From the IMG/VR virus record IMGVR_UViG_3300030372_003010: a stretch of 64,000 bases of DNA. One strand, given 5' to 3'. The stretch comes from an uncultured virus (IMG/VR IMGVR_UViG_3300030372_003010) (lineage: Duplodnaviria; Heunggongvirae; Uroviricota; Caudoviricetes). Positions 26,561 to 64,000 of this stretch are shown in pieces (position 1 is the stretch's first letter; each line of letters starts with the position of its first letter). The notes beneath the pieces were generated by a model. The model had not been told where the DNA came from and did no database searches. It saw only the letters and a program-made list of their open reading frames with translations. Both the position numbers and the translations under genes were made by a program.

Positions 26561-26562
26561 TA

Positions 26563-34251: not shown

Positions 34252-34280
34252 ACATTTAAGGTTTAAACATTAAACTAAAT

Positions 34281-34292
34281 TTTAGTATATTA
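34281..34292 (+). promoter_or_regulatory. Putative phage promoter motif TTTAGTATATTA
   Basis: Exact copy 16 nt upstream of ATG 34309. Confidence 0.65.
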
Positions 34293-34308
34293 TTATAAGA
34301 ATTATAAA

Positions 34309-37500: not shown

Positions 37501-37510
37501 TTAATTATAG

Positions 37511-44999: not shown

Positions 45000-47900
45000 A
45001 TGGCAGAAGATATAAATAACATACAGGATTCAATGGAAGATGATCCTAAAAATTCAGGATCTTACATTAGAGAGGGAACTACAAACATTGAAAATTTTAT
45101 GCCTATAACAGGTAATCCACCTACTGTAGATTTAAGTACACCTGTTCCACAATCAAATAGATCTGCTACACTTCCTTATAATCAACTTAGAGATAATGTT
45201 ACCGGATTTCCTCCATACTCTTCTAACCAAATACCAAAAGAAGAAAATTGGCTTCAAAATGCAGCAGACTATATAGGTCAAACTGCATACCATCAAACAG
45301 ATCAAGGTTCATACTCAAAGCCCTATATGTATGATGCTAGTGCTCAAGGAACACAAAGAGCTAGATATAAAGCCTATGGTCAAGAAACTTTTGATAAAGT
45401 TGGTTTTAATCCTACTTTAAATAATGAAGATATATTTAATGCTAATACTACTATAGTAGATGATTTCATAAGAATGGGTACTAAAGCTTTCTTACCAATG
45501 TACGGTAATGGTTTATTAGCTGGGCCCAAAAGTTATGGTGATGCTATAGGATTAGATTTTGGACAAGATACTGAACAAGCAGATTCTTATGAAGAATATA
45601 ATAACATAGGTTATTCTTCTAAAGGTGGAGTCGGAGGATTTGTAAATAATCTATTTAACAGTGTTGCATATAGTGCAGGTGTATTAACTGAAGCTGCTGC
45701 AGAATATGCTTTAATAGGAATGGTTGAAGGTGCTGTAGCTGGGCCTCAAGGAGCTGCTGGAGGAGCTGCTGCTGGAGGATTATTTGGTATTTTAAAGTCT
45801 ATTCCTCAAATGGGAAAAGCTCTTTATCAAATGACCAAGTATGGTGGTAAAATGAGTGCTCAATTAAAAAACCTAAGAAAATATTCTGAAGCAAGAAAAC
45901 TTTGGGCAACCGCATCTAGAACAACTGCAGATTTTATAAATCCTTTAGGACAAACCGGTAGAGCTTTTCAAAGAAACATTCTTAGTAATGCAGATAATTT
46001 AAGCAATCTTGCTAGAGGTACACGTACAGCAGCAGGATTTTTTAGAGATGTTAGTATGCTTAATGCAGGTTTATCTGAGGGAAGACTTGAAGGTGGTTTT
46101 GTAGAAAATAATACTTACCGTAATGGTTATGATAGATTCTGGAAAGAACATGGTAGAGCTCCAAATGCAGATGAACAACTAGATCTTAGAAAGGTAGCTA
46201 AGCTAGCTGGGTTTCAAGCAACTTGGAAAAATGCATTGTTAGTAAATTATACTAATAAGTTAGCATTCCCTAATCTATTTAGAGGAAGTTTTATGAAAGG
46301 TGCTTCAGCTAATATCAGAAAAGTTGGTAATGAATTTAACTTAGTATATGAAGCTGCTAAAAAAGGTGCTGCTATGGGCCAGTACAAGCTTATAGATTAT
46401 AATTTAAGAAATGCTTTAAAAGGTTTTATTAAACCAAAAAACTTTGGAAAAGCTAGTTTAAATTACTTTAAGTTAAATGTAGTTGAGGGAGCTCAAGAAG
46501 TTTTACAAGATGTTATAGCTACTTCAACAGAAAATTATTATTTAGATAGTTATTTTGATCCATCAAAAAAGAGTTTTGATCACTCTATGGCAACATTAAA
46601 AGATGCTTTTGGAGACATGTATGGTGAGAGAGGATTTGAAACATTTGCTTCAGGTTTCTTTATGGGAGGTTTGTTAAGACCTTTTGGTGGTGCAGTACCT
46701 AGATTTAGAGATAAACTTATAAGTAAAGTTCTTAAAAACGAAGCTGTTTATGAACAAGACATTGCTGAAAGAAAAGCAGATGGTACTAGAATGGTTAATG
46801 CATTAAATAATATGAATAAGAATGCAGCAGAATTCTTAAACCATAGACTATTTAATTATGGTAATCAAGCTATCATATCTAAAAATTCTAATTCAAATGA
46901 AACTGATACTAAACAACATAAAGATAATGTTACTGCATCATTAGTTTCTGATGTAATTACTACTTTAAATTCAGGAACATTTGATGTATGGACTGATAAT
47001 TTAAAACAACTTAAACAACTAGATGCAAAAGGTTTAGAAGATGCGTTAGATTTAGAAGCAGGGCAAGGTGAAAAAGCAAGAATAGCTCTTGATAATTTTC
47101 TAAAAAGAGCAGAGAAGATTGCCAAGAACTGGAAGTTTGGTCAAGAAAACTTAGGTACACAGAGAGTTTCTCTTACTGGTTTAAAAGAAGGTACACCAGA
47201 ATATGATCAAGCTGCCATTCAAAACAAAGCAATTGATGCTGCTATATTTAATTTAACTTTTCTTCAAGAATCTTTTAATGATAATTTAGAAAGAGTTAAT
47301 GAGTTGTATCAGAAGTTTAATAATTTAGGTATGTTCCAAAAACTACCTGGTGCACAGTTTCAACAGATTGCTGATCAAAGATTATTAGCACAAGAAATTG
47401 AAATGCTTACTAAAGCTGTTGAAGTAAATCAACAAGCTTATGATGCATCTCCATCTTCAGAAATGAGTAATCAAATTACGGAACAACGTAATCTTTTAGA
47501 TGCTCTTATTTCTTTTCAGAAAGCACAGCAAGAATATGAAGGTATTCGTAAAGCTATGGAGATTTTGAAAGAAGCTAAGAAAGAAGGAGGCCTTGAAGAT
47601 CAGGATGCTAGTATACAGGCACTTGATGAAATTCTAACTGAATATGAAAATAACTATGATCCTAACTTAAATTACAAATTAGCTTTTGAAAACTTATTAA
47701 AACAGTTGGTAAATAATGATGTAGAGTTTCAAAAGCTTATGGACACTATTGGTAGTGAACAGTTTGATAATTTATATGCAGCATTAATTGATATACACAA
47801 GCTTAATTATGAAGCAGAAAATCTGATACCTTATATAAATCTTTTACTAAATCCTGCAGGATTTGGAGAGCATGTTAAGAGAAACTTTGATTGGATGAGA

Positions 47901-50900
47901 CATCTTTGGTTAACTAGAGATGACTACTATAAAGATATTATTAATAAATCTGTAGAGTTACAGGAGTATAATGATTTATTATTCTCTTTATCTCAGGATA
48001 ATATCTATATAGACCTTGAAGAGTTTGCAAAATGGGTAGAAGATAAGTCATACCAACCTGAAGAGTTTATTGATTCAACAGCTGGAAGTGAAAGAATAAT
48101 TCCAAAAGGAAGTTTGCTTTATGATAAATACTATAGTCAATTAAAAGTTGTTGCTGATATGCAGAAGGTAAAACCTGCAGGGGAAACTTCTGATACTAGA
48201 GAACAAAGAGATAAAGCTATAGAAGATTTAGCTAAACAAAAAGAAGACGAATTAACAGAACTTCGTAAGACATATGAAAATGATATTAAATCAGAAACGG
48301 GTAAAGACTTAAGTCAGCTTGAAGCTCTTCAAGTTAAACCAATTGTAGATCAAGATAAGAATAAGAAAAGCATTAAATTAAAAAAGGAAAGAGTTCGTTT
48401 ACTTAAGTCTCAACTTCAAGAGATAGAAGATATTTTCAAAGCAGCAGATGCTGAAGCTCTTGAAACTTATTTTAAAGATAAGATGATAAGAAAAGAGTAT
48501 GATATATCTACTGAAGATTATATGAATACTTATGCAGAAGCTACTGCTAATCTTATTCAAGAGACACCAGAGTTAAACAAAAAGTTTTTTGACTTTGTAA
48601 ATGCTTCAGAATTTACAGATACGGAGTTTGTGCAAGGTGCTGCTATTGGAGGAATCTTTCTTCAAGATATAATAAATTCTGAAATAACAGAACTTGAAGA
48701 AGCTCTCGAAGATCAAGAATCTAGAACTGATGCTGCAGAAGCTGAGGTAAATGAAATAGAACAGACTCAATCTTATAAGGATTATCAAAAGGCTTTAGCT
48801 GAAATAGAATCTAAGTATACTAATCTAATAGATGAGGTAAATAACAGCTTTAGAAAAAGAGGTGCTGTAATTGAAGAGGTAGAATCTGAAGTTAAAGTTA
48901 CAGATGATTGGAACTCTTTACCAGAAGATTTAAAATCTCAGTTACAGAAGAGTTGGGAAAAAGATCTTAATGACCCTACTTTAGAAGAGCTTTATCCTGA
49001 AGAGTATGTAAGAAGAAGACAAGCTTGGTTTGCAGAACAGTTTGAGGTTGTTCAAGCATATAATGATAGAAAGAATATTGAGAGAATTAAAGCTGAGAGA
49101 GAAGCAGTAACTATAAGAGAACCTAAACTTAAGTTTAAAACTTATAAAGATGTGTCTAAGAAAACTCTTAGAGAGATTAGAGCAATCAGAGATTCTCTTG
49201 AAACAAACTTAGAAACAAAAGCTAAAAAAGTAAAAGGTAAAGTTACACCTCTTGACAAAAAAGATATTGCAAATATTAAAAATGATATTAGAGAGCTTGA
49301 CCTTTTAATAGATAAAAAGAGAACTTCTTTAGAAGAGATTTCTGACTTTACTGAATCTATAAATATTTTTAAAGAAAAGATCTTAGACAAGGAAGGTGAG
49401 ATTGAAGTAGCTAGAGATGAGAATGGAAATGTCATAGAAAGAAGAATAGATGGTAGACCTACAGAAAGAGTTACTAAACTTGCTGAAAAAATTCAACAAG
49501 ATATCTATGAAAAAGATCCATTTGTATACAAGTATATAGATGAAAGAGAAGGTAAGGTATCACCAGTTTTAGAAAACTTTGATGAAATATTAGCTGATGA
49601 TTCTATTACAGACAAGGTAACTACATTTATTACATTCTTTAAAAGTTTAAATCTGCCAGAGTTTAAAAATTTAAATAAAGTAAAAGAGTTAGAAGACAGA
49701 TTAAAAAATAACTTTAGTAGGGAGAACGTATATAATTCAATTGCTGAATTAGCATATGTAGAATCTTCTGAAGCGGGGACATCTATTGATGAGTTACTAA
49801 AAGATTTCTTAACTAGAGAAGGTACAGGGTTTAAACAAATCACTAGACCTGATAATATAAGTGAGGAAGCTTTTGATCAACTGTTTGGAAAGAGAGGTAT
49901 ACTCACAGAGTTTAGAGATGGTATGATTGATGGAGAGTTTACAATTGTTGGTACAGGTAACTTAGTCTTTGATAAAGAAACATTAAGAAACGGTATTGTA
50001 GGTGAGACAGATTTAATAGCTGTAAACAGTGATGGAGAATTCATGATTGTTGATCTTAAAGCGGCTGGAATAAATACTTGGAGAAACTTCAATAAGAAAG
50101 AAGATTTAGAAGCAGCTGAAGCAAAGCTTACAGAAGAAGGTAAAACTGAAGAACTTGAGAAATTAAAAAGAGATGCACTACGTTCTAAGAAAGATTACTT
50201 TAGATTACAACAATCATTATATAGAAACTTGTTTTATAACATGTCAGGTATAATGCCTAAAAGAATTGGTCTTCTACCTATAGAAATTAAAATAGATAGA
50301 AAGACTGGTCAAGTTGTATCCGCTAAAAGACCTAGCATTCTTAGTAAAGGTTTTGATACTGTTGAATTACCATACAATGATATAGTTGAAAACTATGTTC
50401 CTTTAAGAGAGCCATCAGTTAAACCAGAATCATCTGTAGAAACTGTAGAAGCTTTGCCTGAAGATGAATTTTTATTTATTGATGAATATGCTAAGTCAAA
50501 CAAGATAAAAGATAACTTAAATAAAAATGTTATCTATAATGGAAAAGTAGGGAAACTAGTTCTTACTCCTGACGGAACATATGGTGTAGAGTTTACAGAA
50601 ACTACCGGAGGTGCTAAGATAATAATAGATGTTCTTGATGGTGTGATGCCTACAAGCAATGGTGAGATAACTTTTAGAAGTGTAGCACTTGATAAAATAC
50701 AAGCAACAGATAATATATCTCAGCAAGCATTAATAGAAGGTGAGCCAATCAATGCTAAGTTTACAAATGATTTAAATACTGAGGCTGAAATAAACGGTGT
50801 TAGTTATAAAGTAAATAGAAACAAGGAAGGTTTAATAGTATCTCTTACTTATGAGAGTAATGCAAAAGCTATTAATAAATTAAATGCTGAGATAGATAGT

Positions 50901-52235
50901 GTTAGAGATGATATATTTATTCTTAGAAATAAAAGTAGAGTTTCTCCAGAACTTCTTGTTGATTCAATCTCTCAGTTAAACACAAAGGTGGCAGACCTAA
51001 ACTCTCAAGTTACAGCACTAAAAAGAACTAATGCAACAAGAACTGCTAGAGGTGGAAATGCAAGCTCTTTAATCTTTGCATTAAATAGACTTCCAGGAAA
51101 TTTCAAAACAGATACAAAGCATAAAACTTCAATACATGAGCAAAGAGATCTTGATACTATAAGTAGATTAGCAAGTGTATCTGAAGAGATATCTAATACT
51201 ATGACAGGTATATTAGCTAAGCAATATCCTGCGGTATTAGATCAGCTTATAGAGAAGGGTCCTTCAGGTATTAAGGAATCTGATTATTTAAAAATACAAC
51301 TATGGGCAGAAGATGCTGTTGCAGCATTAGAAGAGTTGATGAGCACTGTTGTAAATAAAGGAGACTTAGCAACAGATATAGAACAACAAATATATGCAGT
51401 CAAAGAATTGCAAAATGACTTAGAATTAATTAAACTAACTAAAGATGGCAAAATCAGTAGACAACAAAAAGAAGCAAGAAAAGTTTTCGGACCCAAAGGC
51501 AGGTTACAGACCGGGTCTAGTGTATCTCAGGTTCAAGAGTCTAAATCAGGACCGTCAGAGGGAGTATCTGGATCAGATGAACAATCCGGAGGAGCCAAAA
51601 GAAAACCCACAGATGGAGAAGTAAAATCTCTTGTTAAAGAGATATATACAAAAAAAGGTGAGATAGATATATTAGCAGGTGAAAAAGTTGAGGATCCTGT
51701 AGACAGGTTGATTAAAAAGATAAATGATGCTACTAAGGATACAATAGAAGATGTATTCTATAAAGCAAGTATCGAATCAGGTCAGAATGCTAAAGTTACT
51801 GAAGCTTATAACCAAAAGCTTCAAGCTTTACAAACTGAAATCAATCAAAAAGATTTATCTATTGGTGATCATTTAGTATCAAAAAACCCTATCTTTGATA
51901 GTAAGGGTGATGTTACTGTAAGAGTTACTAATGTGTTTAAAAATGGTAACGTAAATATAGTAGACATAAATAACTCTGATAACAAAATGAAAGTGAATAT
52001 GGAAGAGTTAAAGAATGATTTTGAAAGACCGGCTAAAGCTGCTTTAGAGACTAGTGATGTTGATATAACTGATGAAGATCAAGGATCTTCTGAAATAAGT
52101 GATGAGAATCTTAATGAGTATCTTAAAGGTGCTGAAGGTATCATTACTGATATTGATAACATGAGTTCTGAAGAATTAGAAGCAAGAGCTGCAGAAGGTA
52201 GAGAGTTGTTAAGAAAAAGAAAATGTGATAATTAA
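45000..52235 (+). CDS. Giant ejection protein with Gly/Ala-rich membrane segments and a PD-(D/E)xK nuclease-like domain
   Basis: Hydrophobic segments near 45700-45800 and 46645-46680; GTSID...GETDLI...IVDLK...QQSLY at about 49775-50225. Confidence 0.6.
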   Translation: MAEDINNIQDSMEDDPKNSGSYIREGTTNIENFMPITGNPPTVDLSTPVPQSNRSATLPYNQLRDNVTGFPPYSSNQIPKEENWLQNAADYIGQTAYHQTDQGSYSKPYMYDASAQGTQRARYKAYGQETFDKVGFNPTLNNEDIFNANTTIVDDFIRMGTKAFLPMYGNGLLAGPKSYGDAIGLDFGQDTEQADSYEEYNNIGYSSKGGVGGFVNNLFNSVAYSAGVLTEAAAEYALIGMVEGAVAGPQGAAGGAAAGGLFGILKSIPQMGKALYQMTKYGGKMSAQLKNLRKYSEARKLWATASRTTADFINPLGQTGRAFQRNILSNADNLSNLARGTRTAAGFFRDVSMLNAGLSEGRLEGGFVENNTYRNGYDRFWKEHGRAPNADEQLDLRKVAKLAGFQATWKNALLVNYTNKLAFPNLFRGSFMKGASANIRKVGNEFNLVYEAAKKGAAMGQYKLIDYNLRNALKGFIKPKNFGKASLNYFKLNVVEGAQEVLQDVIATSTENYYLDSYFDPSKKSFDHSMATLKDAFGDMYGERGFETFASGFFMGGLLRPFGGAVPRFRDKLISKVLKNEAVYEQDIAERKADGTRMVNALNNMNKNAAEFLNHRLFNYGNQAIISKNSNSNETDTKQHKDNVTASLVSDVITTLNSGTFDVWTDNLKQLKQLDAKGLEDALDLEAGQGEKARIALDNFLKRAEKIAKNWKFGQENLGTQRVSLTGLKEGTPEYDQAAIQNKAIDAAIFNLTFLQESFNDNLERVNELYQKFNNLGMFQKLPGAQFQQIADQRLLAQEIEMLTKAVEVNQQAYDASPSSEMSNQITEQRNLLDALISFQKAQQEYEGIRKAMEILKEAKKEGGLEDQDASIQALDEILTEYENNYDPNLNYKLAFENLLKQLVNNDVEFQKLMDTIGSEQFDNLYAALIDIHKLNYEAENLIPYINLLLNPAGFGEHVKRNFDWMRHLWLTRDDYYKDIINKSVELQEYNDLLFSLSQDNIYIDLEEFAKWVEDKSYQPEEFIDSTAGSERIIPKGSLLYDKYYSQLKVVADMQKVKPAGETSDTREQRDKAIEDLAKQKEDELTELRKTYENDIKSETGKDLSQLEALQVKPIVDQDKNKKSIKLKKERVRLLKSQLQEIEDIFKAADAEALETYFKDKMIRKEYDISTEDYMNTYAEATANLIQETPELNKKFFDFVNASEFTDTEFVQGAAIGGIFLQDIINSEITELEEALEDQESRTDAAEAEVNEIEQTQSYKDYQKALAEIESKYTNLIDEVNNSFRKRGAVIEEVESEVKVTDDWNSLPEDLKSQLQKSWEKDLNDPTLEELYPEEYVRRRQAWFAEQFEVVQAYNDRKNIERIKAEREAVTIREPKLKFKTYKDVSKKTLREIRAIRDSLETNLETKAKKVKGKVTPLDKKDIANIKNDIRELDLLIDKKRTSLEEISDFTESINIFKEKILDKEGEIEVARDENGNVIERRIDGRPTERVTKLAEKIQQDIYEKDPFVYKYIDEREGKVSPVLENFDEILADDSITDKVTTFITFFKSLNLPEFKNLNKVKELEDRLKNNFSRENVYNSIAELAYVESSEAGTSIDELLKDFLTREGTGFKQITRPDNISEEAFDQLFGKRGILTEFRDGMIDGEFTIVGTGNLVFDKETLRNGIVGETDLIAVNSDGEFMIVDLKAAGINTWRNFNKKEDLEAAEAKLTEEGKTEELEKLKRDALRSKKDYFRLQQSLYRNLFYNMSGIMPKRIGLLPIEIKIDRKTGQVVSAKRPSILSKGFDTVELPYNDIVENYVPLREPSVKPESSVETVEALPEDEFLFIDEYAKSNKIKDNLNKNVIYNGKVGKLVLTPDGTYGVEFTETTGGAKIIIDVLDGVMPTSNGEITFRSVALDKIQATDNISQQALIEGEPINAKFTNDLNTEAEINGVSYKVNRNKEGLIVSLTYESNAKAINKLNAEIDSVRDDIFILRNKSRVSPELLVDSISQLNTKVADLNSQVTALKRTNATRTARGGNASSLIFALNRLPGNFKTDTKHKTSIHEQRDLDTISRLASVSEEISNTMTGILAKQYPAVLDQLIEKGPSGIKESDYLKIQLWAEDAVAALEELMSTVVNKGDLATDIEQQIYAVKELQNDLELIKLTKDGKISRQQKEARKVFGPKGRLQTGSSVSQVQESKSGPSEGVSGSDEQSGGAKRKPTDGEVKSLVKEIYTKKGEIDILAGEKVEDPVDRLIKKINDATKDTIEDVFYKASIESGQNAKVTEAYNQKLQALQTEINQKDLSIGDHLVSKNPIFDSKGDVTVRVTNVFKNGNVNIVDINNSDNKMKVNMEELKNDFERPAKAALETSDVDITDEDQGSSEISDENLNEYLKGAEGIITDIDNMSSEELEARAAEGRELLRKRKCDN

Positions 52236-52241
52236 TAAGAT

Positions 52242-55200
52242 ATGGCTTGTGCATTAGACAATGAATCAATTGGAGCTTTATATGAAGATATTTATTTAGA
52301 TATTAAGTCTAGAATTGATAAAAGAAAGAAGGGTGTTTTTGATATGAAAGACTACTCTAAAAATCTTTACAACAGTATTGTAAATGAAGAAGATCCTGTC
52401 TCTGCTTTACAGGTAGTACAGGTTGTTCCTAAAATTTTAAATTCTATTATAAATAGTTCAGAAGCTGTTCAAGATTATTTTTTAGAAAATGATATTCCTA
52501 CATCTTATATAAAAGAATCTAAAGACTTTAGAGACTTAAATAATGTAGCAAAGTATGTTCAAAAAACTGGTAAGAGATTACAAGTTATAGAGCAAGAAAT
52601 TGAAAGAGCTCAGAAGAATAGAAACAATGTTATTCTACGTAACCCTGATAATAATACTTTAAAAAAAAGTTCTAGAAATACAGCTAAGGTAGAAGATCCT
52701 GCATCTACATCATTCTTTTATTATTTAAGTGGTAAGCCTGGTGCTAAGACTGTAAGAGATCCACAAAAAGATTACATCTATACTGTAATTAGAAAAATCA
52801 AAACTCTAACTGAAGATTTAATTGGAGATGAAACTCAAGTTGTATATGATGATATACCCATTGCTATTAAGCCAACATCTATATTAAATATAGATGAGAA
52901 CTATTTAGTAGATGATGATAAGAAATTTAAAAAAGAAAAGCCTGCATTAGCAGCAGACCTATTATTATCTGTTGTAACTGATACAGATGGTAACCTATTA
53001 TTCTTTGACCAAGATGGAAATGTAAGTACAGAAAAGACAATGACTAATGGAATTGTCTATCAGTACATTAGAAAAGTTAAAAAGGTAGGAAAGGAATATG
53101 TTATTACTAATAGATCTAACTACCAAGATCTTCTTTTAACACCTGAAGAGATAGTAGACAGGGAAATAAAAAGAGAAGAGTCAGAACTTGAAGGAGACTT
53201 TGGTATTCAACCTTCTATAAGAAAACAAAGAATAGAAGATAAGAAGAAAATTCAACAGGAGCAATTAGAGAATATATACAACATGCAAAATGTTGTTTTA
53301 AACAATCCTGATGAAACTTATTTATTGGAAATAAATGGGGGTAGTTATGGTGTAGTAGATACAGCTTACATACCTTTATCAGAAACACCAATAGAGATTG
53401 AGGATCTATCTGCTCCTATTGTTAGTGGTAAGTTATCTGGATACATGTCTGTGAATGCTAAGTATAGAGATGAAAAAGGTACAGTTACAGAAGGTAACTT
53501 GCTTTTACAAAGAGGTGACATGAGTCAAGAACTTGCAGATAAGATTGCAGATATAGTTACAACTACTGCAAAGTTTAATGGTAGAGAACTTACTTTAGAT
53601 GAAAGACTAACATATGTTGATATATTCTTAAAAGGTACTTCTAAAGGTAATAAGATTACAATAAGTTCTCAAAACATTAATTCAGTTGAACTTATGTATT
53701 TAAATATTGATGGAGAATATATTGCCCCTGAAGATATACAAACAAATGAAACTAAGGAAAAGATATCTAATCATCTAATGAATGCTAAAGTTTTAGATAA
53801 CGGAGATGTTTATCCAGCAGATGTAAGTTATAATTCAGATGTTATTGGATCTGAATTCATAGACTATAACATAGAGGGAAATAAGATAACTACAACAAGT
53901 ACCAAGTACAATGACTTTATTAAACCTTTTGTAAAAATTGAATTTAGTAATAAGTCTGGAGGACAGTTTGTAGGAAAGAATTCTTATTTAACTTATTCAA
54001 TACCCAAAGAGATAAATGACATTAAGGAAAGAGCATTTGATATAAATTCAGTATTGCCTGAAAAAGAAGAAGTAAAACCTCTTCAGATTACAGAAGATAT
54101 TACTTTAGGAGTAATTAATCCTGTATTAGTAAAGCAAGCTAGAGCTTCTGTCCTTCAAAAAAATATTAATGATTCAGATGTAGTACTGAATTTAAGTACT
54201 AAGAAAGCATTCAAAGATACAAAAGATGAGTCTGGTTATTCTATTAGAAATGCTAAGGATAAATATATCCCAATGGAATTAGCAAATAGAAAGACTGCAA
54301 GTAAAGCAGTAGCGGATGCATTTACTAAAAAACTTAATGAGAAGAATGCAAGAGTTATAAATATTACGGGTAACAATATTTATAATTTAAGAAGTTCAAA
54401 TATAACACAAGCAACAATTGATGGATTTGTTAAAAGTTTGTTAGAACAAATTGTTCCTAATCTAAATACAGCTAAGGAAGATTTAGTTATAATAGCAACA
54501 GGTCAGTCTGGTGTTTCTGAAGCAGCCATTAAAGCAGCTAAAGATTTAGGGGTTACAGTTATAATGAACATACCAAAGAACTATGAAATAGTAACAGCTA
54601 GAAAATCTAAAAATAGAATAGTAGCTGGTTTATCAAATACTAAAGCTGCATTTCTTGAAAGGTTTGAAGAAACTAAAAGAACTAGAAAAGTTACATCTAA
54701 ACCTGTAAATAAAAAATCTGCTAAAACAAAAGGTGCAGGAAGTAAAACTAAGTTTACTGGTAAGAAAAGAAAGTATACTAAAGCTAAGACTACTTCTAAA
54801 AAGAAGAAAGCTAAAAAAGGTTTAACGAAGAAACAAGAAGCTGAGATTTTACAAAAGCTTAATCAAAGTAATGAAAATCTTAAGCAAGCTAAAGATAGAA
54901 GTTCTTTGTTTTCAGATTTAGAAAGAAGTAAAGGTGTCTCAACATTCTTTGATAGATTGTTTACTAGCAAAGCTGATAAAAAGAAAGCTCTTGATTGGTA
55001 TAATAATGAGTCTAACTTAAAAGGTATTATACCTTTAGAAGTTATAACAGAGATAGTTAATTCAAATGCATTTGCTAAATGGAGCAAAGATGGTATCACA
55101 TTATATGAAGCAGACGGAGGAACTCCTGTTGATCTTTATCATGAGGCATGGCATGGATTTAGTCAATTATTTTTAACTGTTCCTCAGAAAGAATCACTAT

Positions 55201-58200
55201 ATGCAAGTATAAAAAATACTATTCCTAAATTTAAGAATGCTGAGCCTATAACTATAGAGGAAGCATTAGCAGAAGACTTTAGAAGTTATGCAAAAGGTCA
55301 AAAGAAATTTAAAGGAATAGTTGGTAAGATATTTAATCTTATTAATAAGTTTCTTAAATGGATGTATGGTGGAGTAACTAGGACAGATATGACTAGTTTG
55401 AGAGATATACCTAGGGTAAAAGAACTGTATAACCAATTATACAAGGGTGAGATACTAGATTTAAAACCTAGCACGCAAAATATATATGAAGATTTCCATG
55501 TACTGAATAGCTTACAAAATACTATAAAGCTTACTAAAAAAGATCAAGATAACTTTGACGAGTTTACAATTGATGAGACTAATATTGTTTTAAATACTTT
55601 TGATAATATTGTAGCAGATATTATTAAGAGTTCTTCAATATCTAATAATGATCTTAATATATTTAAGAAAGTTTTAAATACAAAGAGTGAGATTCTTTTT
55701 GATGCTGTTTATGAGGAGCTGTCAGAAACAAGAGATGGTTTATTTGAACAAGTTGAAAAGTTAAATATTACAGAAGATAGTTCTCCAGAAGATCTTTTTG
55801 AAGAAGAAAGACTTTTTGATAAAATTGATCTGCTAAATAAAACATTGAATAATTTTGGAGATGTAACTTTATCACTAGAAGGTAAGCAAAAAACAGGAGT
55901 AGTTGCATTCTATCTTAATTCAGGAAGATTTTCATTAGTAAAAGAAATTTATAAGGATGATATTGCTGATGAAGGTCAATTAGATATAGATGATACAACT
56001 TCTGTTGAAGACATGCAGCAGTATAGAGATGATAAAGCTAATTTATTTAATCCTCAAACACTTGCAAGTCAAGACACCTTAAGCTTATTATCTTTAATAA
56101 CTCAAGTAGAAAAGAATGCTAAAGGCGAGTATACACAAATACCAGATTATTTTGGCTATCCTCAAGTAGAAGACATAGGAATTATATGGAACAGGGTATC
56201 TAAGGTTACAGAAGGTTCATTTAGTTATGCTGATTTTTATAAAAGACTTATAGAAAATTCAACAAACTATCCGCAACTTCAGCAGCTAGCAGATATATTA
56301 AAACCTCCCGGTGAAGCATATAAAAATAATTCCGAGTTTAATACTGAAACAAATTTGTATCAAGACTTATCTAAACCAAGAGTTCGTTTTAGACAATTAA
56401 ATATTATTAAAAGTGTTCTTAGAAGAGAAACTGAATTCACTGAAGAAGTAGCTGAGTTTGATATAGGAGTTGCTGATGCATCTTTCTCTACAAGAGGTGT
56501 TATAGCAGACTGGACTAATCAATTCGCAACATCTACTAAGTTCACCAATCCTTATGTAGAGCTTAATGGTTTAGAGCCTGTACTTAATGTTAAAAAAATA
56601 ATTAAAGACTTTAGTAATTCTAAGACAGGTTTATTTAAAAAGAATTTATCATTACCATTTTTAAGAGCTTTAGGTATAGCATTAGATCCAACAAGTGCAG
56701 AGATACAAGCTGAAGCAGCTAATGTAAATTCTTTCTATTCAGGATATAGAATTGATTTAATATTTGATTCAATTAAACTAGTTAATAAAGCTTTGAATTC
56801 TGATTCTGTTGCAGATATTTCATCAGCAGAAAAGTTTATTAAAAGTCCTATTGAGTATTTAAGAAAAGGACTTCCTAAAAATATAAGACTTTCACCGGAG
56901 CAAAACAACAATGTTAAAAACAGAATAAATCAATTAGCAGAATTGCAAGTTAAATATTCAGATAAGTATTCTAATTTTAGTACAACATTGCCTACAGATG
57001 ATAGAGTTTGGGAACAGCAAAATGCTAGTGCAATAGTTAGAAGAGTTCAAGCATTAAATAATGCTGATAACTTTCAACAACTTACAACTCCAGAAGCAGA
57101 TCCAGATGGTATTTACAAACATATGTACTTTTTAGCTGAAAATAATAATACATTTTCTAAGTACTCTCGTATATTGAATTCATTATTTGTATTAGATAAT
57201 GAAGCAAACTATGGAGAAAGAAGAACTATGTTAGTTGATGGTAAACAAGCCCCTGTTACACTAGATACATATAATATAGGAGGTACTAAATACATAGATA
57301 CAGATAACTTCTCAAACAATCAAGGTGCTAAAACATCTAGGATAGAGGTTACTGGTAAGTTTTTACAAGAGTTAAATAGCATGCTTTTAAATGGAGTAGA
57401 GGAGTTTATGAGACATGCTTCTAAGAATACTGCAATGGGAATAGGTGTTAGTAAGATATTTGGAAATAATACTACGAAACATTTATACATAGATGTAAAA
57501 GACTTTGGTCCTATTAAAGGTAATGCTGGAAAATTAAAAGGTGTTGATATAGTTAATGGATATCTTAAAGCTGAACTAGAACGTATGTTTAAATATACAA
57601 AGTTTAAAGATACAAAGTTTAAAGATTTTTCAGGTTATAATAGAAAGGTTCTTAAGAAGGATGGTTCAGGTAAATTTATTGAAGCAGGTTCAGCATTTAC
57701 TATTTTTGATGATATATTAACTGAGGAAGTTCAGAAGGATCTTTATGATATGGTAGATAAAGCTATAGCAAATAAAACTGTTATGGAATCAATACCTGAA
57801 GAACTTCAAGAAAGAGTTAATAAAGACATGCTAGAATATTTTGATAAAGTTGTAGATAATAATGTCAAATTATTTAATAAGGCCGGATATGTTTCAGAGC
57901 AATTGATAGATATTGTTCAAACACCTGGTATGGCACCATCTATAATAACTAGATCTTTAATGTCTGCTTATACTTTTAATTCTTTTATACATAAAGTAGA
58001 GACCACAATCCTAGGTTATGGTGATGCTGTACAGTACGATCATTCTAAAGAAGAGTTTCATAAAAGAAATTCTTGGTTAGCAACAGGTGCTAGAAACTTA
58101 AGATCTGATATTGATGCACAAAATTTTATTAATACTATTTATAAGTTTAGACATGCTGCTAAACATGGCTATAGTGTAAATCCTTACAACGGGACATTTA

Positions 58201-61200
58201 ATGCAGGTATAATAAAAGAAAAAGTTATTGAAAAATCAGAATACTATGAAGAGTATTTAGATGCTGTAGCTAATGCTATAAATAAAAGAATTAAGAATAA
58301 AAAGAAATCTAAAGAGCTTGCAGAAAAAGTACTATCTGAATATCTAGGTATTAAAGAAGGTGACGGTCAAGGTTATATTCCTATTGAGTATTATAGAATG
58401 ATGCAAGATTTAGCTGGTCTATGGTCTCCTGAACAAGAAGCTTTATACAATGATATAGTTTCAGGTGTAGAAATAAATCCTGAAGAAGTTACTCAGATGT
58501 TCCCTCCTTTAAAGTATCAATACTCAGGAAATCTTAAAACAGAAGGTTTACCTTTAACAGCACAGCATAAGTTTTCTTTAACTCCAATAGTACCTGAACT
58601 TTTACCTGAAGGTTCTAATCTTTTAAAACTACATGATAGTATGGTTAAGCAAAATATTGCTTATTCAACTTTTGAGTCCGGTTCTAAGATTGCTCATTTA
58701 GGTACACCAACAAATTTACTTAACGAAGATGGTTCTTATAATGAAGAAGCACAGTTTACTCCTAATGTTATTTATGCAGACTATCTTAAAAGTCAAGTTA
58801 ATGTAAATAAAGAATTTAAAGGTAATGTTGTTTTCTCTACTCAGATGAGAAAATTAGTCTTAGAAGGTTTATTTAATAAAGGTAAGTTAAAGCCTGGAGC
58901 AAAATCCATACATGATTCTTATATTAAAAACATACGTGACTATACTGAGTTAGTTGAGTTTGAGTTTTTAGAAGAGATAGGTTTTGAAAAAAGAGGAGAT
59001 AAATATTTTATGAAAGATAAATCAAGTATAAGAAACTTGGTTAACCTTGTAAGAAATAGTCTCTTAAATCAAGATGTTCTAGGAGATCATTTAATAAACA
59101 TAATAGATATTACTGCTAATAATAATCTATCTTTAGATTTATCTTTACATCCTCAAGCAGATAGAATAGAGAAGTTAATATTGTCTCTAATCAATAAAAG
59201 AATTATTAAACAAAAGTTTAATGGAGAACCATTAGTTCAAATGGCTCCAACATTTGCTGAGGGAATGTTCTCAGAGCCTGAAAGTAAATTAAAGAAAGGT
59301 ACTGCTGAATACATTAAGAAACTAAAAGGTAGTAATTTCTTACCAACATATCACGAGACTGTAAGAGCTAATAAAAAAGTTACTGCAGCTACTAAGGTTG
59401 TATTAACTATGCAAGGAGATTTCTTTAATCTTCTAAATATAGAGTATGAAGGAGAAGTGATAGGCACAGTTGAAAAACTTAATGAGTTACTAAAGGAAGA
59501 TGACTTTGTAGATAAATACAGAGATCAGATTTCAATAGTAGGTGTACGTATTCCAGTGCAAGGTCTAAACTCTATGGAGTTTGCTGAAGTATTTCATTTC
59601 TTACCACCAGGTAATTCTAATGTAATTATTTCTGCATCAGAGCTAGTTGCAAAATCAGGAGGTGACTTTGACGTGGATAAATTAACTACATATTTTCCAA
59701 ATATAAATGAGGAAGGTGCTCTTGTGGGTAAAGCATTTAATTCATTAGCTGAATTGAAAAAAGACTTTGCTGAGAGAGCAGATGGGTCTATCAAGTATGA
59801 TTTAATGAAGCAGCAAAAAGCTGCTATACAAAATAGTATTATAAAAGACTTAAGAAATATTTTAGAACTTCCTCAAAATTTTGCAAGTCTAATTACACCT
59901 AATGCAACTTCATTACTATTACCTATTGCAGAAGAGTTAGCTGAATATGTTATGGAATATAATCCTAAGCAATCTTTAATGACTCAAGCTAATGTTAAAG
60001 AAGATGGTAAAGAAATTATTAGTCCAACTAGAATTTTTGAAGCAGAGTATAACCTGTATAAACATGAATCAAATAATATAGGTAAAAGAACATTAGGTTT
60101 AGGTGCTGTAGAAAATACATTTAATACCTTAATGACAGGTCTAGGTGCATACATGCCTGCTCAATTTATGCAAGGGCAAGGTAGAAGCTTAGAAAAAAGA
60201 AATAGCAATCTATTCTTAAATCATAATGTTACAAAAGACAAAGCGGGTAATGAAGTTATTTCAGTATCTAATGAGTATGATGTAAATAATGAAAATAGAG
60301 TAGGAGAAGTTATCTCTCAAATGATGAATGGTTGGGTAGATGTTGAAAAAGATGCATGGATATTCTACATTCAAGGAAACTATGAGGTTGCACCTCAATT
60401 ACTTTATTTACTTAAAGCAGGTGTTCCTGTTAGAGAAGCAATATTCTTTGTGTCAAATCCATTAGTAAGAACATATGTTAAAGAACAACAACTTGCTAAC
60501 AGTCCCTATAATGAAATGCTAGGTACAAAACCAGCTGAGCCACAATTTGCAAAGTTTAAAGCTGCAACAGAAACTCTTGCTACAGTAGCTAAATTTGCAG
60601 GCAATCCTTATGATGCAAAAAAAGGTATAGGATCAAATAGAGCAAGATATCAAAAAGGGTTATCATTAGCTGACAGACATCTTAGAAACGGAGTGTTTCC
60701 TTTAAGTAAAATGGAAGCACTTGTTAAGACAGATGTAAATGAATTAACAGATAGTCAAAAAGATTTTGCAACTGCTATGTTCTTACATTATCTAGCTATT
60801 GAACAACAAATTTCAGATTTAACTAAATTAAAAATAACTATGAATCCTGATACTAACAGTAGAACAGGAGGAGCAATTATTGAGCAATCCGAACTTAATA
60901 TTGAAGAGCTTAAAGGTAGTAGTAAATTAATGCCAGGTATAATTGAAAAATTTGAAAATGATAGTGTTATTGGTTCTTACTTTAAAAATGATTTATCAGC
61001 TAAAATTTTAGAGGCTATATTTCCTTTGAGATTTAATGAAAACTTTGTTTCATTAATGATGTTAAATAATGAGGAGCTTAAAAAACTATCAAGAATAAAA
61101 TATGGTACAGTTGACATACAAAAGATAAGCTCATTTTTTAGAGATGAATTTGTAAATTATATATTCCAAAATGTTTTAAGAACTCCTGTAATAAAAGATA

Positions 61201-62753
61201 ACTATAAGAGTTATGTATTAAAAACTAATACTAAAGTTTCTAAAACTATTAAGTTAAACTTTGGAGCATTTGTCAAAGACGGTGTATTATATACTAATGA
61301 AAAAGCATTAGAGAAAGAATTCAAAGATGAACTTTGGGTAAAAGGAAACACAGAGCAAGGTAACTATGAATCAAGAGGTTTATATGCATTAAACCCTGCT
61401 ACATTTAAATCATCAAAGGGTACAAACTTTACTCAGTACAAGCACTTTGTTTTAGAAAGAGAAACTTTGAGATCTATCACAAGTATGGAAGATCTTGAGT
61501 CTACAACTTTATTTAAAAAAGAACTAAAGAGTATTTCAGAACTAGACCCTACTAAGGGTAACCCTAAGAAATATGTTTATGAAAAGATACTAGCTAACAA
61601 AGCTTTATCTAATATCTTTAATCCATATCATTTGTTTAATGATCCGGTAAATGCATACTCTGTAGAATACTCACAACTAATGGATAAGTTTGGAGACAAG
61701 CTTTCTAAATATACGGTTCTTGAAAAGTTAAAACCTGAAACTAATAAAAAAATAAATAGTTATAACTTGTATTTAGCAGAAAAAGATTTTGATAATAATC
61801 TATCTACTTTATATAATAAAAACTTAAAAGACTTAGCTAATCCTCAGATACTTAAAGTACCTAATTATGAAGATAACTTATATATAAGTGAATTCTTTAG
61901 TAGACTTCCTTTAGTAGGATTTTTACAATCCGGTGTATCAGCAGGAAAATATAACTTTACAAATATATTAGAACCAAGCGATTATCTATTTATTGTAAAA
62001 GACTCTGCTAATAGAATCAATGATTTATTAACAGGGAAAGTTCAATCAGATATGGTTGATATCTTTAATGGCTTTATGAAGAGTTTTGTAAATGTTAATG
62101 ATATTAAACCAGGAGCATCAAAAAGAACTAAACCTATATTTAAAGATTACTTAGTTGAGTATGATATATTCAAGCCTGATGTAACAGTAGAAGAAACTTC
62201 TGAAGATTTAATTGAAGGTGCTGTACCTGGAGTAGTTCTGTATGATGACAGTAAGGATGGTACAAAATACTATGAGAACTTAGTAAACAATAATCCAAAT
62301 ACTTTCTTTGTGTATAGTTACTTTTTAACTAATGTTAAAACTACAAATCCTGTTCCTTATAGAAAGTCTGGATTAATATCTAAACTTTCAGAAGATTTAT
62401 CAATGGGAATTCCTGTTGGAGTAAATGGATACACAGATAATTTTTCTACCTTTAATCCTGAAAGATATGATCAGGTAAAAGAAGTGTGGTCAAAAAAGTT
62501 TAATACTTTAAGTAAGCTTATAAAAGGTGGTGTCACAATAGCATTACCTAAATCAGGCTTTGGATCAACTACAATGCCTAGTGAACTATATATAGATTTA
62601 TCTAAACAGATGTTGAAGTTTGGAGTTTTAAATCCTGACTCAGCACAATATAAAGATGTAGAAGAAACAATAGGGGATGTTCAAGGAATATCCGATGCAG
62701 AAATAATAACAGAACTAGGATTAGAAGAAGATCCTTTTGTTTGTAAATTTTAA
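52242..62753 (+). CDS. Virion-packaged DNA-dependent RNA polymerase (crAss / phi14:2 gp66 type) with accessory domains
   Basis: 3503 aa; DGQGY (about 58360), RIPVQG (59547) and the catalytic GGDFDVDK loop (DFDVD 59664-59678); also a zincin HEAWH motif (55140-55154). Confidence 0.9.
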   Translation: MACALDNESIGALYEDIYLDIKSRIDKRKKGVFDMKDYSKNLYNSIVNEEDPVSALQVVQVVPKILNSIINSSEAVQDYFLENDIPTSYIKESKDFRDLNNVAKYVQKTGKRLQVIEQEIERAQKNRNNVILRNPDNNTLKKSSRNTAKVEDPASTSFFYYLSGKPGAKTVRDPQKDYIYTVIRKIKTLTEDLIGDETQVVYDDIPIAIKPTSILNIDENYLVDDDKKFKKEKPALAADLLLSVVTDTDGNLLFFDQDGNVSTEKTMTNGIVYQYIRKVKKVGKEYVITNRSNYQDLLLTPEEIVDREIKREESELEGDFGIQPSIRKQRIEDKKKIQQEQLENIYNMQNVVLNNPDETYLLEINGGSYGVVDTAYIPLSETPIEIEDLSAPIVSGKLSGYMSVNAKYRDEKGTVTEGNLLLQRGDMSQELADKIADIVTTTAKFNGRELTLDERLTYVDIFLKGTSKGNKITISSQNINSVELMYLNIDGEYIAPEDIQTNETKEKISNHLMNAKVLDNGDVYPADVSYNSDVIGSEFIDYNIEGNKITTTSTKYNDFIKPFVKIEFSNKSGGQFVGKNSYLTYSIPKEINDIKERAFDINSVLPEKEEVKPLQITEDITLGVINPVLVKQARASVLQKNINDSDVVLNLSTKKAFKDTKDESGYSIRNAKDKYIPMELANRKTASKAVADAFTKKLNEKNARVINITGNNIYNLRSSNITQATIDGFVKSLLEQIVPNLNTAKEDLVIIATGQSGVSEAAIKAAKDLGVTVIMNIPKNYEIVTARKSKNRIVAGLSNTKAAFLERFEETKRTRKVTSKPVNKKSAKTKGAGSKTKFTGKKRKYTKAKTTSKKKKAKKGLTKKQEAEILQKLNQSNENLKQAKDRSSLFSDLERSKGVSTFFDRLFTSKADKKKALDWYNNESNLKGIIPLEVITEIVNSNAFAKWSKDGITLYEADGGTPVDLYHEAWHGFSQLFLTVPQKESLYASIKNTIPKFKNAEPITIEEALAEDFRSYAKGQKKFKGIVGKIFNLINKFLKWMYGGVTRTDMTSLRDIPRVKELYNQLYKGEILDLKPSTQNIYEDFHVLNSLQNTIKLTKKDQDNFDEFTIDETNIVLNTFDNIVADIIKSSSISNNDLNIFKKVLNTKSEILFDAVYEELSETRDGLFEQVEKLNITEDSSPEDLFEEERLFDKIDLLNKTLNNFGDVTLSLEGKQKTGVVAFYLNSGRFSLVKEIYKDDIADEGQLDIDDTTSVEDMQQYRDDKANLFNPQTLASQDTLSLLSLITQVEKNAKGEYTQIPDYFGYPQVEDIGIIWNRVSKVTEGSFSYADFYKRLIENSTNYPQLQQLADILKPPGEAYKNNSEFNTETNLYQDLSKPRVRFRQLNIIKSVLRRETEFTEEVAEFDIGVADASFSTRGVIADWTNQFATSTKFTNPYVELNGLEPVLNVKKIIKDFSNSKTGLFKKNLSLPFLRALGIALDPTSAEIQAEAANVNSFYSGYRIDLIFDSIKLVNKALNSDSVADISSAEKFIKSPIEYLRKGLPKNIRLSPEQNNNVKNRINQLAELQVKYSDKYSNFSTTLPTDDRVWEQQNASAIVRRVQALNNADNFQQLTTPEADPDGIYKHMYFLAENNNTFSKYSRILNSLFVLDNEANYGERRTMLVDGKQAPVTLDTYNIGGTKYIDTDNFSNNQGAKTSRIEVTGKFLQELNSMLLNGVEEFMRHASKNTAMGIGVSKIFGNNTTKHLYIDVKDFGPIKGNAGKLKGVDIVNGYLKAELERMFKYTKFKDTKFKDFSGYNRKVLKKDGSGKFIEAGSAFTIFDDILTEEVQKDLYDMVDKAIANKTVMESIPEELQERVNKDMLEYFDKVVDNNVKLFNKAGYVSEQLIDIVQTPGMAPSIITRSLMSAYTFNSFIHKVETTILGYGDAVQYDHSKEEFHKRNSWLATGARNLRSDIDAQNFINTIYKFRHAAKHGYSVNPYNGTFNAGIIKEKVIEKSEYYEEYLDAVANAINKRIKNKKKSKELAEKVLSEYLGIKEGDGQGYIPIEYYRMMQDLAGLWSPEQEALYNDIVSGVEINPEEVTQMFPPLKYQYSGNLKTEGLPLTAQHKFSLTPIVPELLPEGSNLLKLHDSMVKQNIAYSTFESGSKIAHLGTPTNLLNEDGSYNEEAQFTPNVIYADYLKSQVNVNKEFKGNVVFSTQMRKLVLEGLFNKGKLKPGAKSIHDSYIKNIRDYTELVEFEFLEEIGFEKRGDKYFMKDKSSIRNLVNLVRNSLLNQDVLGDHLINIIDITANNNLSLDLSLHPQADRIEKLILSLINKRIIKQKFNGEPLVQMAPTFAEGMFSEPESKLKKGTAEYIKKLKGSNFLPTYHETVRANKKVTAATKVVLTMQGDFFNLLNIEYEGEVIGTVEKLNELLKEDDFVDKYRDQISIVGVRIPVQGLNSMEFAEVFHFLPPGNSNVIISASELVAKSGGDFDVDKLTTYFPNINEEGALVGKAFNSLAELKKDFAERADGSIKYDLMKQQKAAIQNSIIKDLRNILELPQNFASLITPNATSLLLPIAEELAEYVMEYNPKQSLMTQANVKEDGKEIISPTRIFEAEYNLYKHESNNIGKRTLGLGAVENTFNTLMTGLGAYMPAQFMQGQGRSLEKRNSNLFLNHNVTKDKAGNEVISVSNEYDVNNENRVGEVISQMMNGWVDVEKDAWIFYIQGNYEVAPQLLYLLKAGVPVREAIFFVSNPLVRTYVKEQQLANSPYNEMLGTKPAEPQFAKFKAATETLATVAKFAGNPYDAKKGIGSNRARYQKGLSLADRHLRNGVFPLSKMEALVKTDVNELTDSQKDFATAMFLHYLAIEQQISDLTKLKITMNPDTNSRTGGAIIEQSELNIEELKGSSKLMPGIIEKFENDSVIGSYFKNDLSAKILEAIFPLRFNENFVSLMMLNNEELKKLSRIKYGTVDIQKISSFFRDEFVNYIFQNVLRTPVIKDNYKSYVLKTNTKVSKTIKLNFGAFVKDGVLYTNEKALEKEFKDELWVKGNTEQGNYESRGLYALNPATFKSSKGTNFTQYKHFVLERETLRSITSMEDLESTTLFKKELKSISELDPTKGNPKKYVYEKILANKALSNIFNPYHLFNDPVNAYSVEYSQLMDKFGDKLSKYTVLEKLKPETNKKINSYNLYLAEKDFDNNLSTLYNKNLKDLANPQILKVPNYEDNLYISEFFSRLPLVGFLQSGVSAGKYNFTNILEPSDYLFIVKDSANRINDLLTGKVQSDMVDIFNGFMKSFVNVNDIKPGASKRTKPIFKDYLVEYDIFKPDVTVEETSEDLIEGAVPGVVLYDDSKDGTKYYENLVNNNPNTFFVYSYFLTNVKTTNPVPYRKSGLISKLSEDLSMGIPVGVNGYTDNFSTFNPERYDQVKEVWSKKFNTLSKLIKGGVTIALPKSGFGSTTMPSELYIDLSKQMLKFGVLNPDSAQYKDVEETIGDVQGISDAEIITELGLEEDPFVCKF

Positions 62754-62764
62754 ATTAAAAAGAA

Positions 62765-64000
62765 ATGGCTTGTATAGCGAGAGATAATGCAATAAAGCAT
62801 CTAATAGATAAAGGAGCAATTGATGATACGAGAAAGATCTTGGATCTAAAACTGTATGAAGATCTAAATAAAAAGTTAACTGAGATTGCAGTTAGAAAAT
62901 ACAACTTAGATACATTAGGTAATGAATTGTTTGCCATTAATGCATATGATGCTACATACTCAAGGCCGGTAACAACTGGAAGAGAACTTACATTCAAGGT
63001 AAGACGAGCTGTTCCTAACTCAGTTTTATTTGAGACTTTAGATGAAAAAATAAAAACATACGAGGAGAGATCTTCACAACCTGTTGTTGTTCCTGAAGAA
63101 ACTATAGAAGTTGTAGAAGATACTGTAGAGGATACTGTTCTAGAACCAACAGGAGAGCAACTTGAATTTAACTTCCTAGAAGACAATAGTGTTGAGATAA
63201 ACTTAGAAGACCTTAAGAGCCAAAGATCTAGACAACTAGGATCTGCAATAGCAGAAAGATTAGCACTAGGAATGAACTACAACTTCGAGAACATAACAGA
63301 GGAGAGAGCTGTAGAGATATTAAAAAGTAGAGTAGTAGGATACAGAGGAGAACCCGCTTTTAATTTTGCAGGAACTGTTTATGTAGTAGGAGACAATGTA
63401 ACGCTAAATACTGTACTACATGAGTTTGGTCATCCATTAATAAGATCAGTAAGACAGTTGAATGATAAACTGTATAATAATCTGTACGAGGAGTTGATGG
63501 GTACTACTGAGGGGGAAGTTATAGAAGAGGCCGTGCTAGCAGAGTATCCTGAATTAAAAGACTCACCTGTATTTTTAAAAGATGAAATCTTAACATATGC
63601 ACTACAACTAAAATCAGCAAACCAAGTAAACAATGAAATAGAAACAAAGGGATTTGATAATGTTATAAGGAAACTTTTAGCTGCCATTAAAGATTTACTA
63701 CGAGGTATATTTGGTAGAAAAATAAAAGTCTCCAAAATAAATGTTGACACTACACTAGAAGAACTCGGTACCATAATGCTGTCAGATCAAATAGACCTGC
63801 AGACAGACATGTTGACTGAAGAGGATGTGGTTGCATATGGAAAAGATTTAATAGAAAGAGTTAAGGTATTAACTGATAACGCTAAAGCTGAGACTATTAA
63901 CCAGGCAATCACTGAAATATTTGAAGCTAACAAAGAAGTGTTAATGAATGCAAGGAAGACTAAGTTAGATCCTGCAACTAAAGAAATATTAAAGAGATCC
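62765..64000 (+). CDS. Next giant virion protein with a zincin motif (truncated by the window end; absent from the ORF track)
   Basis: ATG 62765 MACIARDNAIKHL...; in-frame VLHEFGHPLI (HEFGH 63419-63433); no stop seen before the window end. Confidence 0.8.
   Translation, partial: MACIARDNAIKHLIDKGAIDDTRKILDLKLYEDLNKKLTEIAVRKYNLDTLGNELFAINAYDATYSRPVTTGRELTFKVRRAVPNSVLFETLDEKIKTYEERSSQPVVVPEETIEVVEDTVEDTVLEPTGEQLEFNFLEDNSVEINLEDLKSQRSRQLGSAIAERLALGMNYNFENITEERAVEILKSRVVGYRGEPAFNFAGTVYVVGDNVTLNTVLHEFGHPLIRSVRQLNDKLYNNLYEELMGTTEGEVIEEAVLAEYPELKDSPVFLKDEILTYALQLKSANQVNNEIETKGFDNVIRKLLAAIKDLLRGIFGRKIKVSKINVDTTLEELGTIMLSDQIDLQTDMLTEEDVVAYGKDLIERVKVLTDNAKAETINQAITEIFEANKEVLMNARKTKLDPATKEILKRS

Follow-up and report, generated by a model that had tools for sequence, protein, structure and literature searches.

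We report here a rule of cysteine (Cys) placement in three neighbouring genes, called A, B and C, of an uncultured virus (IMG/VR record IMGVR_UViG_3300030372_003010), and the link between their giant products to which this rule points. The stretch analysed, hereafter the window, comprised 64,000 nucleotides (bases 1-64000 of a contig of 75,163 base pairs (bp)) with a guanine plus cytosine (G+C) content of 32%. Gene B encodes a putative virion RNA polymerase (RNAP), while A and C encode proteins predicted to accompany it as cargo. We consider it likely that the facing ends of the three proteins dock in order, end to end, and are sealed by disulfides, an arrangement that would replace gene fusion. 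The genes, with their counterparts in the cultured phages crAss001 and phi14:2, the codons of the Cys residues and the catalytic motif were located as follows:

45000..52235, + strand: gene A, putative RNAP-associated cargo protein of 2411 residues, at the position of crAss001 gp47 / phi14:2 gp67
52224..52226, + strand: codon of A Cys2409 (tail Cys, junction A-B)
52242..62753, + strand: gene B, putative virion RNA polymerase of 3503 residues, orthologue of phi14:2 gp66 / crAss001 gp50
52248..52250, + strand: codon of B Cys3 (head Cys, junction A-B)
59664..59678, + strand: DFDVD catalytic motif of two-barrel RNAPs, B residues 2475-2479
62742..62744, + strand: codon of B Cys3501 (tail Cys, junction B-C)
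62765..64000 in the window, + strand: start of gene C, putative RNAP-associated cargo protein of 1978 residues, ending at position 68701 of the contig, orthologue of phi14:2 gp65 / crAss001 gp49
62771..62773, + strand: codon of C Cys3 (head Cys, junction B-C)

The sole Cys of protein A was residue 2409 of 2411 (...KRKCDN), B had two, at residues 3 and 3501 (MAC..., ...FVCKF), and that of C was residue 3. The three proteins together contained 4 Cys in 7892 residues, each being the third residue from the end that faces the neighbour protein, and the outer ends (N-terminus of A and C-terminus of C) had none. An earlier note on this DNA, made by eye from the sequence, had claimed that the terminal Cys were the only ones in the 2411- and 3503-residue proteins, and the exact counts agree. 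The probability that 4 Cys fall at random on those four ends, one on each, was about 5e-13 (within 3 residues) or 6e-11 (within 10 residues), figures that were computed post hoc and serve as a guide only.

The homology of A, B and C was established with profiles built from their homologues and searched against 49 reference proteins. The B profile matched phi14:2 gp66 with an expectation value (E) of 1.6e-16, and tblastn of B found the same protein (E 3e-5). The A profile matched crAss001 gp47 (E 1.8e-20), with no match to phi14:2 gp67 among the 49 proteins, and that of C matched phi14:2 gp65 (E 1.1e-26) over a region including the N-terminal 141 positions. In addition, the motif GGDFDVD was found in B at residue 2475, and D2475, D2477 and D2479 were invariant in 45 aligned full-length homologues. 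On this basis, B is a gp66-type Crassvirales virion RNAP and A and C are its partners in the cargo trio; motif and profile match bear out the RNAP label that the 3503-residue protein had been given in the earlier note. Other searches gave little or nothing: direct phmmer of B against PDB gave no match, nor did single-sequence scans of the loci with the tail and the core of B, and in PDB, Pfam, PHROGs and NCBIfam no family was found for A and only weak accessory-domain matches for B.

The terminal Cys were conserved among close relatives. The homologue sets consisted of the best 120 of 183 (A), 995 (B) and 164 (C) matches, included the window's own protein or a near copy, and were rich in near-identical ends (62-95 distinct 20-mers). 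All 120 homologues of A had a tail Cys (within 10 residues of the end) and none a head Cys, with 2 internal Cys in 299,625 residues. For B, a tail Cys was present in 119/120 and a head Cys in 109/120, with 16 internal Cys in 406,204 residues; the 12 misses were all fragments, the 11 lacking a head Cys starting at B residue 439-1714 and the one lacking a tail Cys ending near 2933. For C, the head Cys was found in 109/120, the 11 misses all being without the first 18-208 residues, and a tail Cys in a single protein with an aberrant end; internal Cys numbered 17 in 273,311 residues. In a wider set, the 150 best among 2023 cluster representatives (50% identity), 145 had the tail Cys and 131 the head Cys. 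Here, 22 proteins accounted for 24 misses: 5/5 tail misses stopped early and 18/19 head misses started late, the remaining one being P0438, in which A and B are fused and the sole Cys is the final residue.

The same picture was obtained in 58 IMG/VR loci, taken from the best 80 of 234 matches. Every complete facing end carried its Cys (48/48, 50/50, 53/53 and 52/52; 203/203 in total), as opposed to 1/94 outer ends (A heads 1/43, C tails 0/51), and the lone A-head Cys, in locus L067, is likely due to an upstream start miscall. The tail of the gene preceding A had a Cys in 0/43 of these loci. Breaks without Cys in L031 and L083 were not counted as true splits, as they look like frameshift errors. 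In alignments whose rows were picked for intact ends or starts, Cys3 and Cys3501 of B (45 full-length homologues) and Cys3 of C (50 sequences) were invariant, and the residues adjacent to the terminal Cys were variable. Conservation of these Cys in orthologues, on which the earlier note had made its proposal depend, was near total.

The rule extended to named phages of the whole order. We compared 24 loci, and the tally was made on 49 proteins; the interrupted polymerases of cr108_1, cr116_1 and IAS were left out of it, as were the A proteins of cr85_1, cr106_1 and cr116_1, which are cut by the locus edge and all end in Cys. Three layouts were found: three separate genes (phi14:2, crAss001, DAC15 and others), B fused to C (7 Intestiviridae, crAssphage included) and A fused to B (9 loci, namely 7 Suoliviridae, Dulem virus 42 and Fpv3). 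BLAST supported the fusions, with 7/7 BC proteins matching C proteins and 7/9 AB proteins matching crAss001 gp47. A fusion of all three, which a preprint reports for some phages (bioRxiv 10.1101/2020.03.07.982082), was present in none of the 24 loci. Free facing ends had a Cys in 53/54 cases and outer ends in 0/44. In phi14:2 the pattern was that of the window, with gp67 C1797 (the last residue), gp66 C3 and C2179, and gp65 C3, and no others. According to the rule, the pairs would be gp67 C1797-gp66 C3 and gp66 C2179-gp65 C3 in phi14:2, and gp47 C2339-gp50 C5 and gp50 C2404-gp49 C5 in crAss001. Where genes were fused, only the remaining split retained the Cys pair: Fpv3 and P0438 had no internal Cys at all, cr55_1 had none before residue 4026, and cr3_1, cr107_1 and jaberico had none from residue 2108 to about 4050. 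The rule also held in crAss001, DAC15, cr85_1, cr106_1, IAS and cr116_1, where A is inverted and away from B, and therefore it is a signal of the protein rather than of the DNA where two genes meet. Internal Cys were almost absent from two Flavobacteriaceae phages (1 in 11,171 residues).

The converse, a gain of the Cys pair with a new split, was found in a cassette with a GIY-YIG endonuclease gene. In one locus (L039), gene C was in pieces: an open reading frame (ORF) of 396 residues with Cys only at 3 and 395, the GIY-YIG gene, and an ORF of 2232 residues starting MAC. P0255, an intact relative 94-99% identical to it, has no Cys at the split site. The cassette is a block of 860 bp in which the endonuclease gene is flanked by the new tail and the new head, and it was 95-96% identical in L086 (the same as L039), L087 and L088, three phages with polymerases that are only remotely akin. 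It lies after a RRILEVQSD-type motif that was uninterrupted in 12/120 homologues of C. Looser versions were present in L116 and in L089, there just upstream of an RNAP-homologous ORF. The expected Cys was on every piece in 3/5 cassette phages; in L087 and in L116 one piece lacked it. The cassettes were located as follows:

L039:20710-29246: cassette locus
L086/L087/L088:5230-6097: cassette locus
L089:5323-6080: cassette locus, looser version
L116:4914-6100: cassette locus, looser version

The cassette spacers were of 51 and 2 bases and Rfam gave no group I/II intron match in L039:20500-23500, and therefore there is neither room nor signal for an intron. The Pfam scan of the cassette loci revealed no intein family. 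The rule of Cys placement also points to a mobile element that mends its own damage at the protein level.

The proposed linkage would proceed in steps. While the particle is being assembled in the reducing cytoplasm, a Cys-ended C-terminal helix would dock onto the N-terminal module of the protein that follows. The charges of the ends would favour A-B and B-C pairing over self-closure of B, the tail of A being basic, the head and tail of B acidic, and the head of C neutral to basic (mean net charge near the Cys, over 10-20 residues, of +1.6 to +1.9, -1.2 to -2.7, -1.9 to -4.6 and -0.1 to +0.8, respectively). Profile-profile comparison gave no significant kinship between the head modules of B and C (E 0.045, probability 1%) or between the tail modules (E 0.3). 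The Cys pair would be oxidised in the mature particle, as in the cyanophage A4 discussed below, giving a chain of about 7,900 residues as a substitute for gene fusion. Tethered in this way, the proteins would keep their order as they unfold and thread through the tail and across the oxidising periplasm, and the other Cys would have been purged so that no wrong bond arises. More speculatively, a junction that reaches the cytoplasm might be reduced, freeing the polymerase.

In this regard, the earlier note had proposed that the proteins are linked in gene order by disulfides or metal bridges, packaged and ejected as one string, and released in the reducing cytoplasm. Of this, the comparative data lend good support to a linkage that follows gene order and is likely made by disulfides: the Cys are conserved, they are lost where genes are fused and gained where a gene is newly split, and A4 provides a disulfide. 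As to the type of link, the disulfide is favoured and the metal bridge is less likely. Covalent packaging as one string is doubtful because assembly occurs in the cytoplasm; docking probably comes first and oxidation later. Release is not needed at every junction, since there are lineages in which a peptide bond takes the place of one junction or the other. Residues 1657-1699 of C, beyond the window, form a LysM domain (PF01476, E 7.5e-6; L025:2766-8702), which suggests that C may stay in the periplasm as the periplasmic end of the chain. LysM was listed for a few homologues of A as well. In its most general form, the modular Cys tail and head would be a clip that substitutes for the peptide bond and swaps freely with fusion; it would join 6,000-8,000 residues into a reversible polyprotein that sets the exit order of the ejection machine and the RNAP, and a homing-endonuclease cassette would have captured the clip to cut a cargo gene non-lethally, as a splice-free counterpart of the split intein. 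We regard this wider proposal as evenly balanced between right and wrong.

Several points weigh against the chain of disulfide-linked neighbours. Among the reference loci, the one facing end that missed was in cr273_1, whose last Cys is 50 residues from the end. The fused junctions are not exactly placed, a profile of C heads having failed to map them; cr4_1 has a single Cys (2180) at the estimated A-B junction, and 4/7 B+C fusions have a Cys 787-852 residues past the catalytic motif, apparently in the polymerase body. The loss of a terminal Cys upon fusion is expected for any role of a free end and does not name the partner. It must also be considered that relatives share ancestry and that independent fusions may number only 2 to 5. 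Among the cassette phages, the ORF after the cassette in L087 is of 201 residues with no Cys end, and the ORF before it in L116 has no starting Cys. The polymerase of IAS and cr116_1 is divided between two ORFs, and while the first has its tail Cys, none stands at the start of the second; ambiguous bases and a likely intron at the catalytic motif would explain this. The polymerase genes of cr108_1 (L004, 17380) and cr116_1 (L023, 16049) were broken exactly at the catalytic GSDFD motif, a likely intron site. Gut lineages tolerate internal Cys (165 in 122,082 residues of the other 44 proteins, mostly of gut phages), and purging may be weaker in anaerobic hosts. As for the published data, gp47, gp49 and gp50 were unresolved in the virion map of crAss001 (PMC10172136), and purified gp66 transcribes alone in dithiothreitol (bioRxiv 10.1101/2020.03.07.982082), so the link is not needed for catalysis.

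Among the other explanations, the one that survives best, unlikely as it is, retains the disulfides and places them outside the A-B-C chain, in oligomers of a protein's own copies, in self-closure of B, or with portal, tail or host Dsb partners. The capsid would have room for more than one copy of each cargo protein, the tail proteins in crAss001 virions use interchain disulfides (PMC10172136), and Cys loss on fusion would be equally expected. Yet the outer ends gain no Cys (0/44 and 1/94, as given above), a new split yields tail Cys and head Cys jointly, both ends of B are acidic, which speaks against its self-closure, and the single solved case, A4, is a tail-to-head bond between neighbours. 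It is quite improbable that the same ordered chain is held instead by a metal ion, such as zinc, shared by each Cys pair. Capsids assemble in the reducing cytoplasm, where such a bridge could form and disulfides are not favoured; the Cys is often the last residue, offering both thiol and carboxylate, and the tail of B has conserved acids (EEDPFxC). This is countered by the lack of a conserved histidine, second Cys or acid near the Cys of the A tail, B head and C head, by the variable Cys position (-1 to -10 and 3 to 6), and by the A4 pair, which was modelled as a disulfide.

A comparably small chance is left to purely non-covalent docking, with the Cys being a mere conserved contact or becoming oxidised in air after purification, with no role in infection. 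This would suit the many hosts that are gut anaerobes, the endonuclease-derived tails of the Aeh1 NrdA, which act as plain interaction domains (PMC3045599), and three upstream genes of the window with a similar-looking helix-glycine-strand tail without Cys, as judged by eye. However, the Cys is the sole invariant residue at these ends, where its neighbours vary freely, and elsewhere in these proteins Cys is purged to about 0.004%. Finally, a DNA or RNA signal at the junctions (translational coupling or an overlapping motif) incidentally read as Cys, for which intergenic gaps of 1-11 bases and the use of TGT in 191/199 Cys codons could be invoked, is largely refuted and can practically be dismissed: the Cys is kept where A is inverted and moved or other genes lie between the partners, its distance from the stop codon varies, TGC is also used, the TGT bias is consistent with 32% G+C, and the equally tight junction upstream of A has a Cys in 0/43. 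Two further chemistries were dropped for the terminal Cys, that of inteins and that of lipoproteins, because the head Cys stands at 3-6 and not as the mature first residue, with no signal peptide evident by eye.

With respect to the rest of the window, Pfam and PHROGs matches to crassvirus structural genes (portal, major capsid, two ring proteins and muzzle) spanned 77-24374. The profile matches were PF23898 (E 1e-29), PF25702 (E 1e-22), PF24228 (E 1e-11) and PF25731 (E 2e-29), the portal being matched by phrog_6547; therefore, going by these capsid, ring, muzzle and portal matches, the source phage is a member of the order Crassvirales. Eight long genes lie downstream of the muzzle, A, B and C being the final three, and replication genes on the opposite strand come after C. 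No Rfam RNA and no tRNA were found in the window. Within 24374-41224, the genes at 24374, 26563 and 34309 share by eye a similar acidic helix-glycine-strand tail, e.g., ELDEDELQKMIEGGYRIEEID, and the genes that follow them open with a basic strand (MAKYKITG, MAKKRYRVY and MKYKVRIK). The proteins of 26563, 34309 and 41289 have zero Cys. These Cys-less tails and heads resemble those of the cassette and are possibly a non-covalent version of the clip. Amid the structural genes, at 10292-13159, there is a protein of 955 residues with 58 Cys, which had no family match in Pfam and PHROGs. An invariant HExxH motif followed by a conserved glutamate was present in B (HEAWH, 967-971; window 55140-55154) and in C (HEFSH, 219-223; 63419-63433); we take both to be zincin-like, which would give two such domains per chain. 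Near the ends of B and C, accessory domains were gained or lost at few sites (AAA_33 kinase, cpYpsA, DUF7831, PF08719, PF13532, PF18760 and GNAT), and therefore it seems that optional passengers travel into the host on the A-B-C chain.

Crassviruses are the most abundant gut phages. How a polymerase complex of about 0.7-0.9 megadaltons is ordered and threaded through a tail of <50 Å is an open question (PMC13434306, PMC10172136), and a paper on N4 describes the crassvirus ejection proteins as unresolved (PMC13434306). The rule names exact residue pairs that can be tested in the cultured phages crAss001 and phi14:2, gives the assembly order of the trio, and flags start-codon miscalls and fragments in annotations. 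In the literature, subscription papers and supplements being outside its scope, our search found no report on the terminal Cys of crassvirus cargo proteins; the word cysteine does not occur in the available text of the gp66 preprint, the crAss001 atlas (PMC10172136), the crAss001 isolation paper (PMC6235969) or a 2023 review (PMC10136315).

The closest known proteins are the orthologous cargo of other crassviruses, phi14:2 gp67/gp66/gp65, crAss001 gp47/gp50/gp49 and crAssphage gp45/gp44, which follow the same Cys rule and are sometimes fused. The phi14:2 trio is annotated as virion cargo, and gp66 is the proven virion RNAP of this phage (bioRxiv 10.1101/2020.03.07.982082). In crAss001, gp47, gp49 and gp50 were identified as virion cargo by mass spectrometry and must partly unfold to pass the tail, the order of ejection being left open (PMC10172136). 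That study ran reduced and non-reduced virion samples and excised one band, and its available text gives no result on gp47, gp49 and gp50 in this respect (PMC10172136). By their homology, A, B and C would likewise be packaged and ejected in the phage of the window. N4 and DEV (Schitoviridae) also eject a giant polymerase in which Cys is suppressed for passage through the periplasm; in contrast to A, B and C, theirs is a single polypeptide including the flanking domains, with a polymerase of T7 type, and Cys is suppressed throughout, with no conserved exceptions reported in the available text (PMC11445570).

The cassette has a parallel in the nrdA-a / mobE / nrdA-b arrangement of Aeh1, where a gene is split by a free-standing endonuclease and its two halves cooperate through tails that this element supplies, the split being rescued by the tails that arrived with mobE (PMC3045599). 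Fractured genes with split inteins (PMC2677866) are likewise comparable in the splitting of a gene by an endonuclease. Unlike in these cases, the tails and heads of the cassette carry Cys, recur in distant phages and match the host's own cargo joint, and no intein-like or splicing signal was seen in it.

For the link itself, the precedent is the T7-like cyanophage A4 (Anabaena phage A-4L). Its gp27 (1717 residues, only Cys 1715) and gp26 (1114 residues, only Cys 5) are encoded by adjacent genes, and the cryo-electron microscopy structure of the virion shows gp27 reaching into gp26 with its C-terminal helix, which a Cys1715-Cys5 disulfide holds in place (PMC12002296, PDB 9K3A). Pf-WMP3 has the same gp27/gp26 Cys layout. 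In A4 gp28 and its Pf-WMP3 counterpart, the only two Cys form a CxxC about 20 residues from the C-terminus (L026:25321-28497; L085:633-3617). Like A, B and C, the A4 pair is adjacent and otherwise Cys-free, with a single Cys at each facing end; it differs in having one link, two proteins and no RNAP. The bond is called stabilising, and the available text does not mention whether it is conserved, a purge of other Cys, or an alternation with gene fusion (PMC12002296). A tblastn search, which covered gp27 and not gp26, found only 11 cyanophage records and no crassvirus. Therefore, A, B and C would work like the A4 pair and, as far as the gp27 search goes, would not be its relatives by descent. 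The type of link is already known from this one pair, and what is new here is the presence of several links, a rule that spans the order, a polymerase within the chain, the swapping of the link with gene fusion, and its presence on a mobile cassette.

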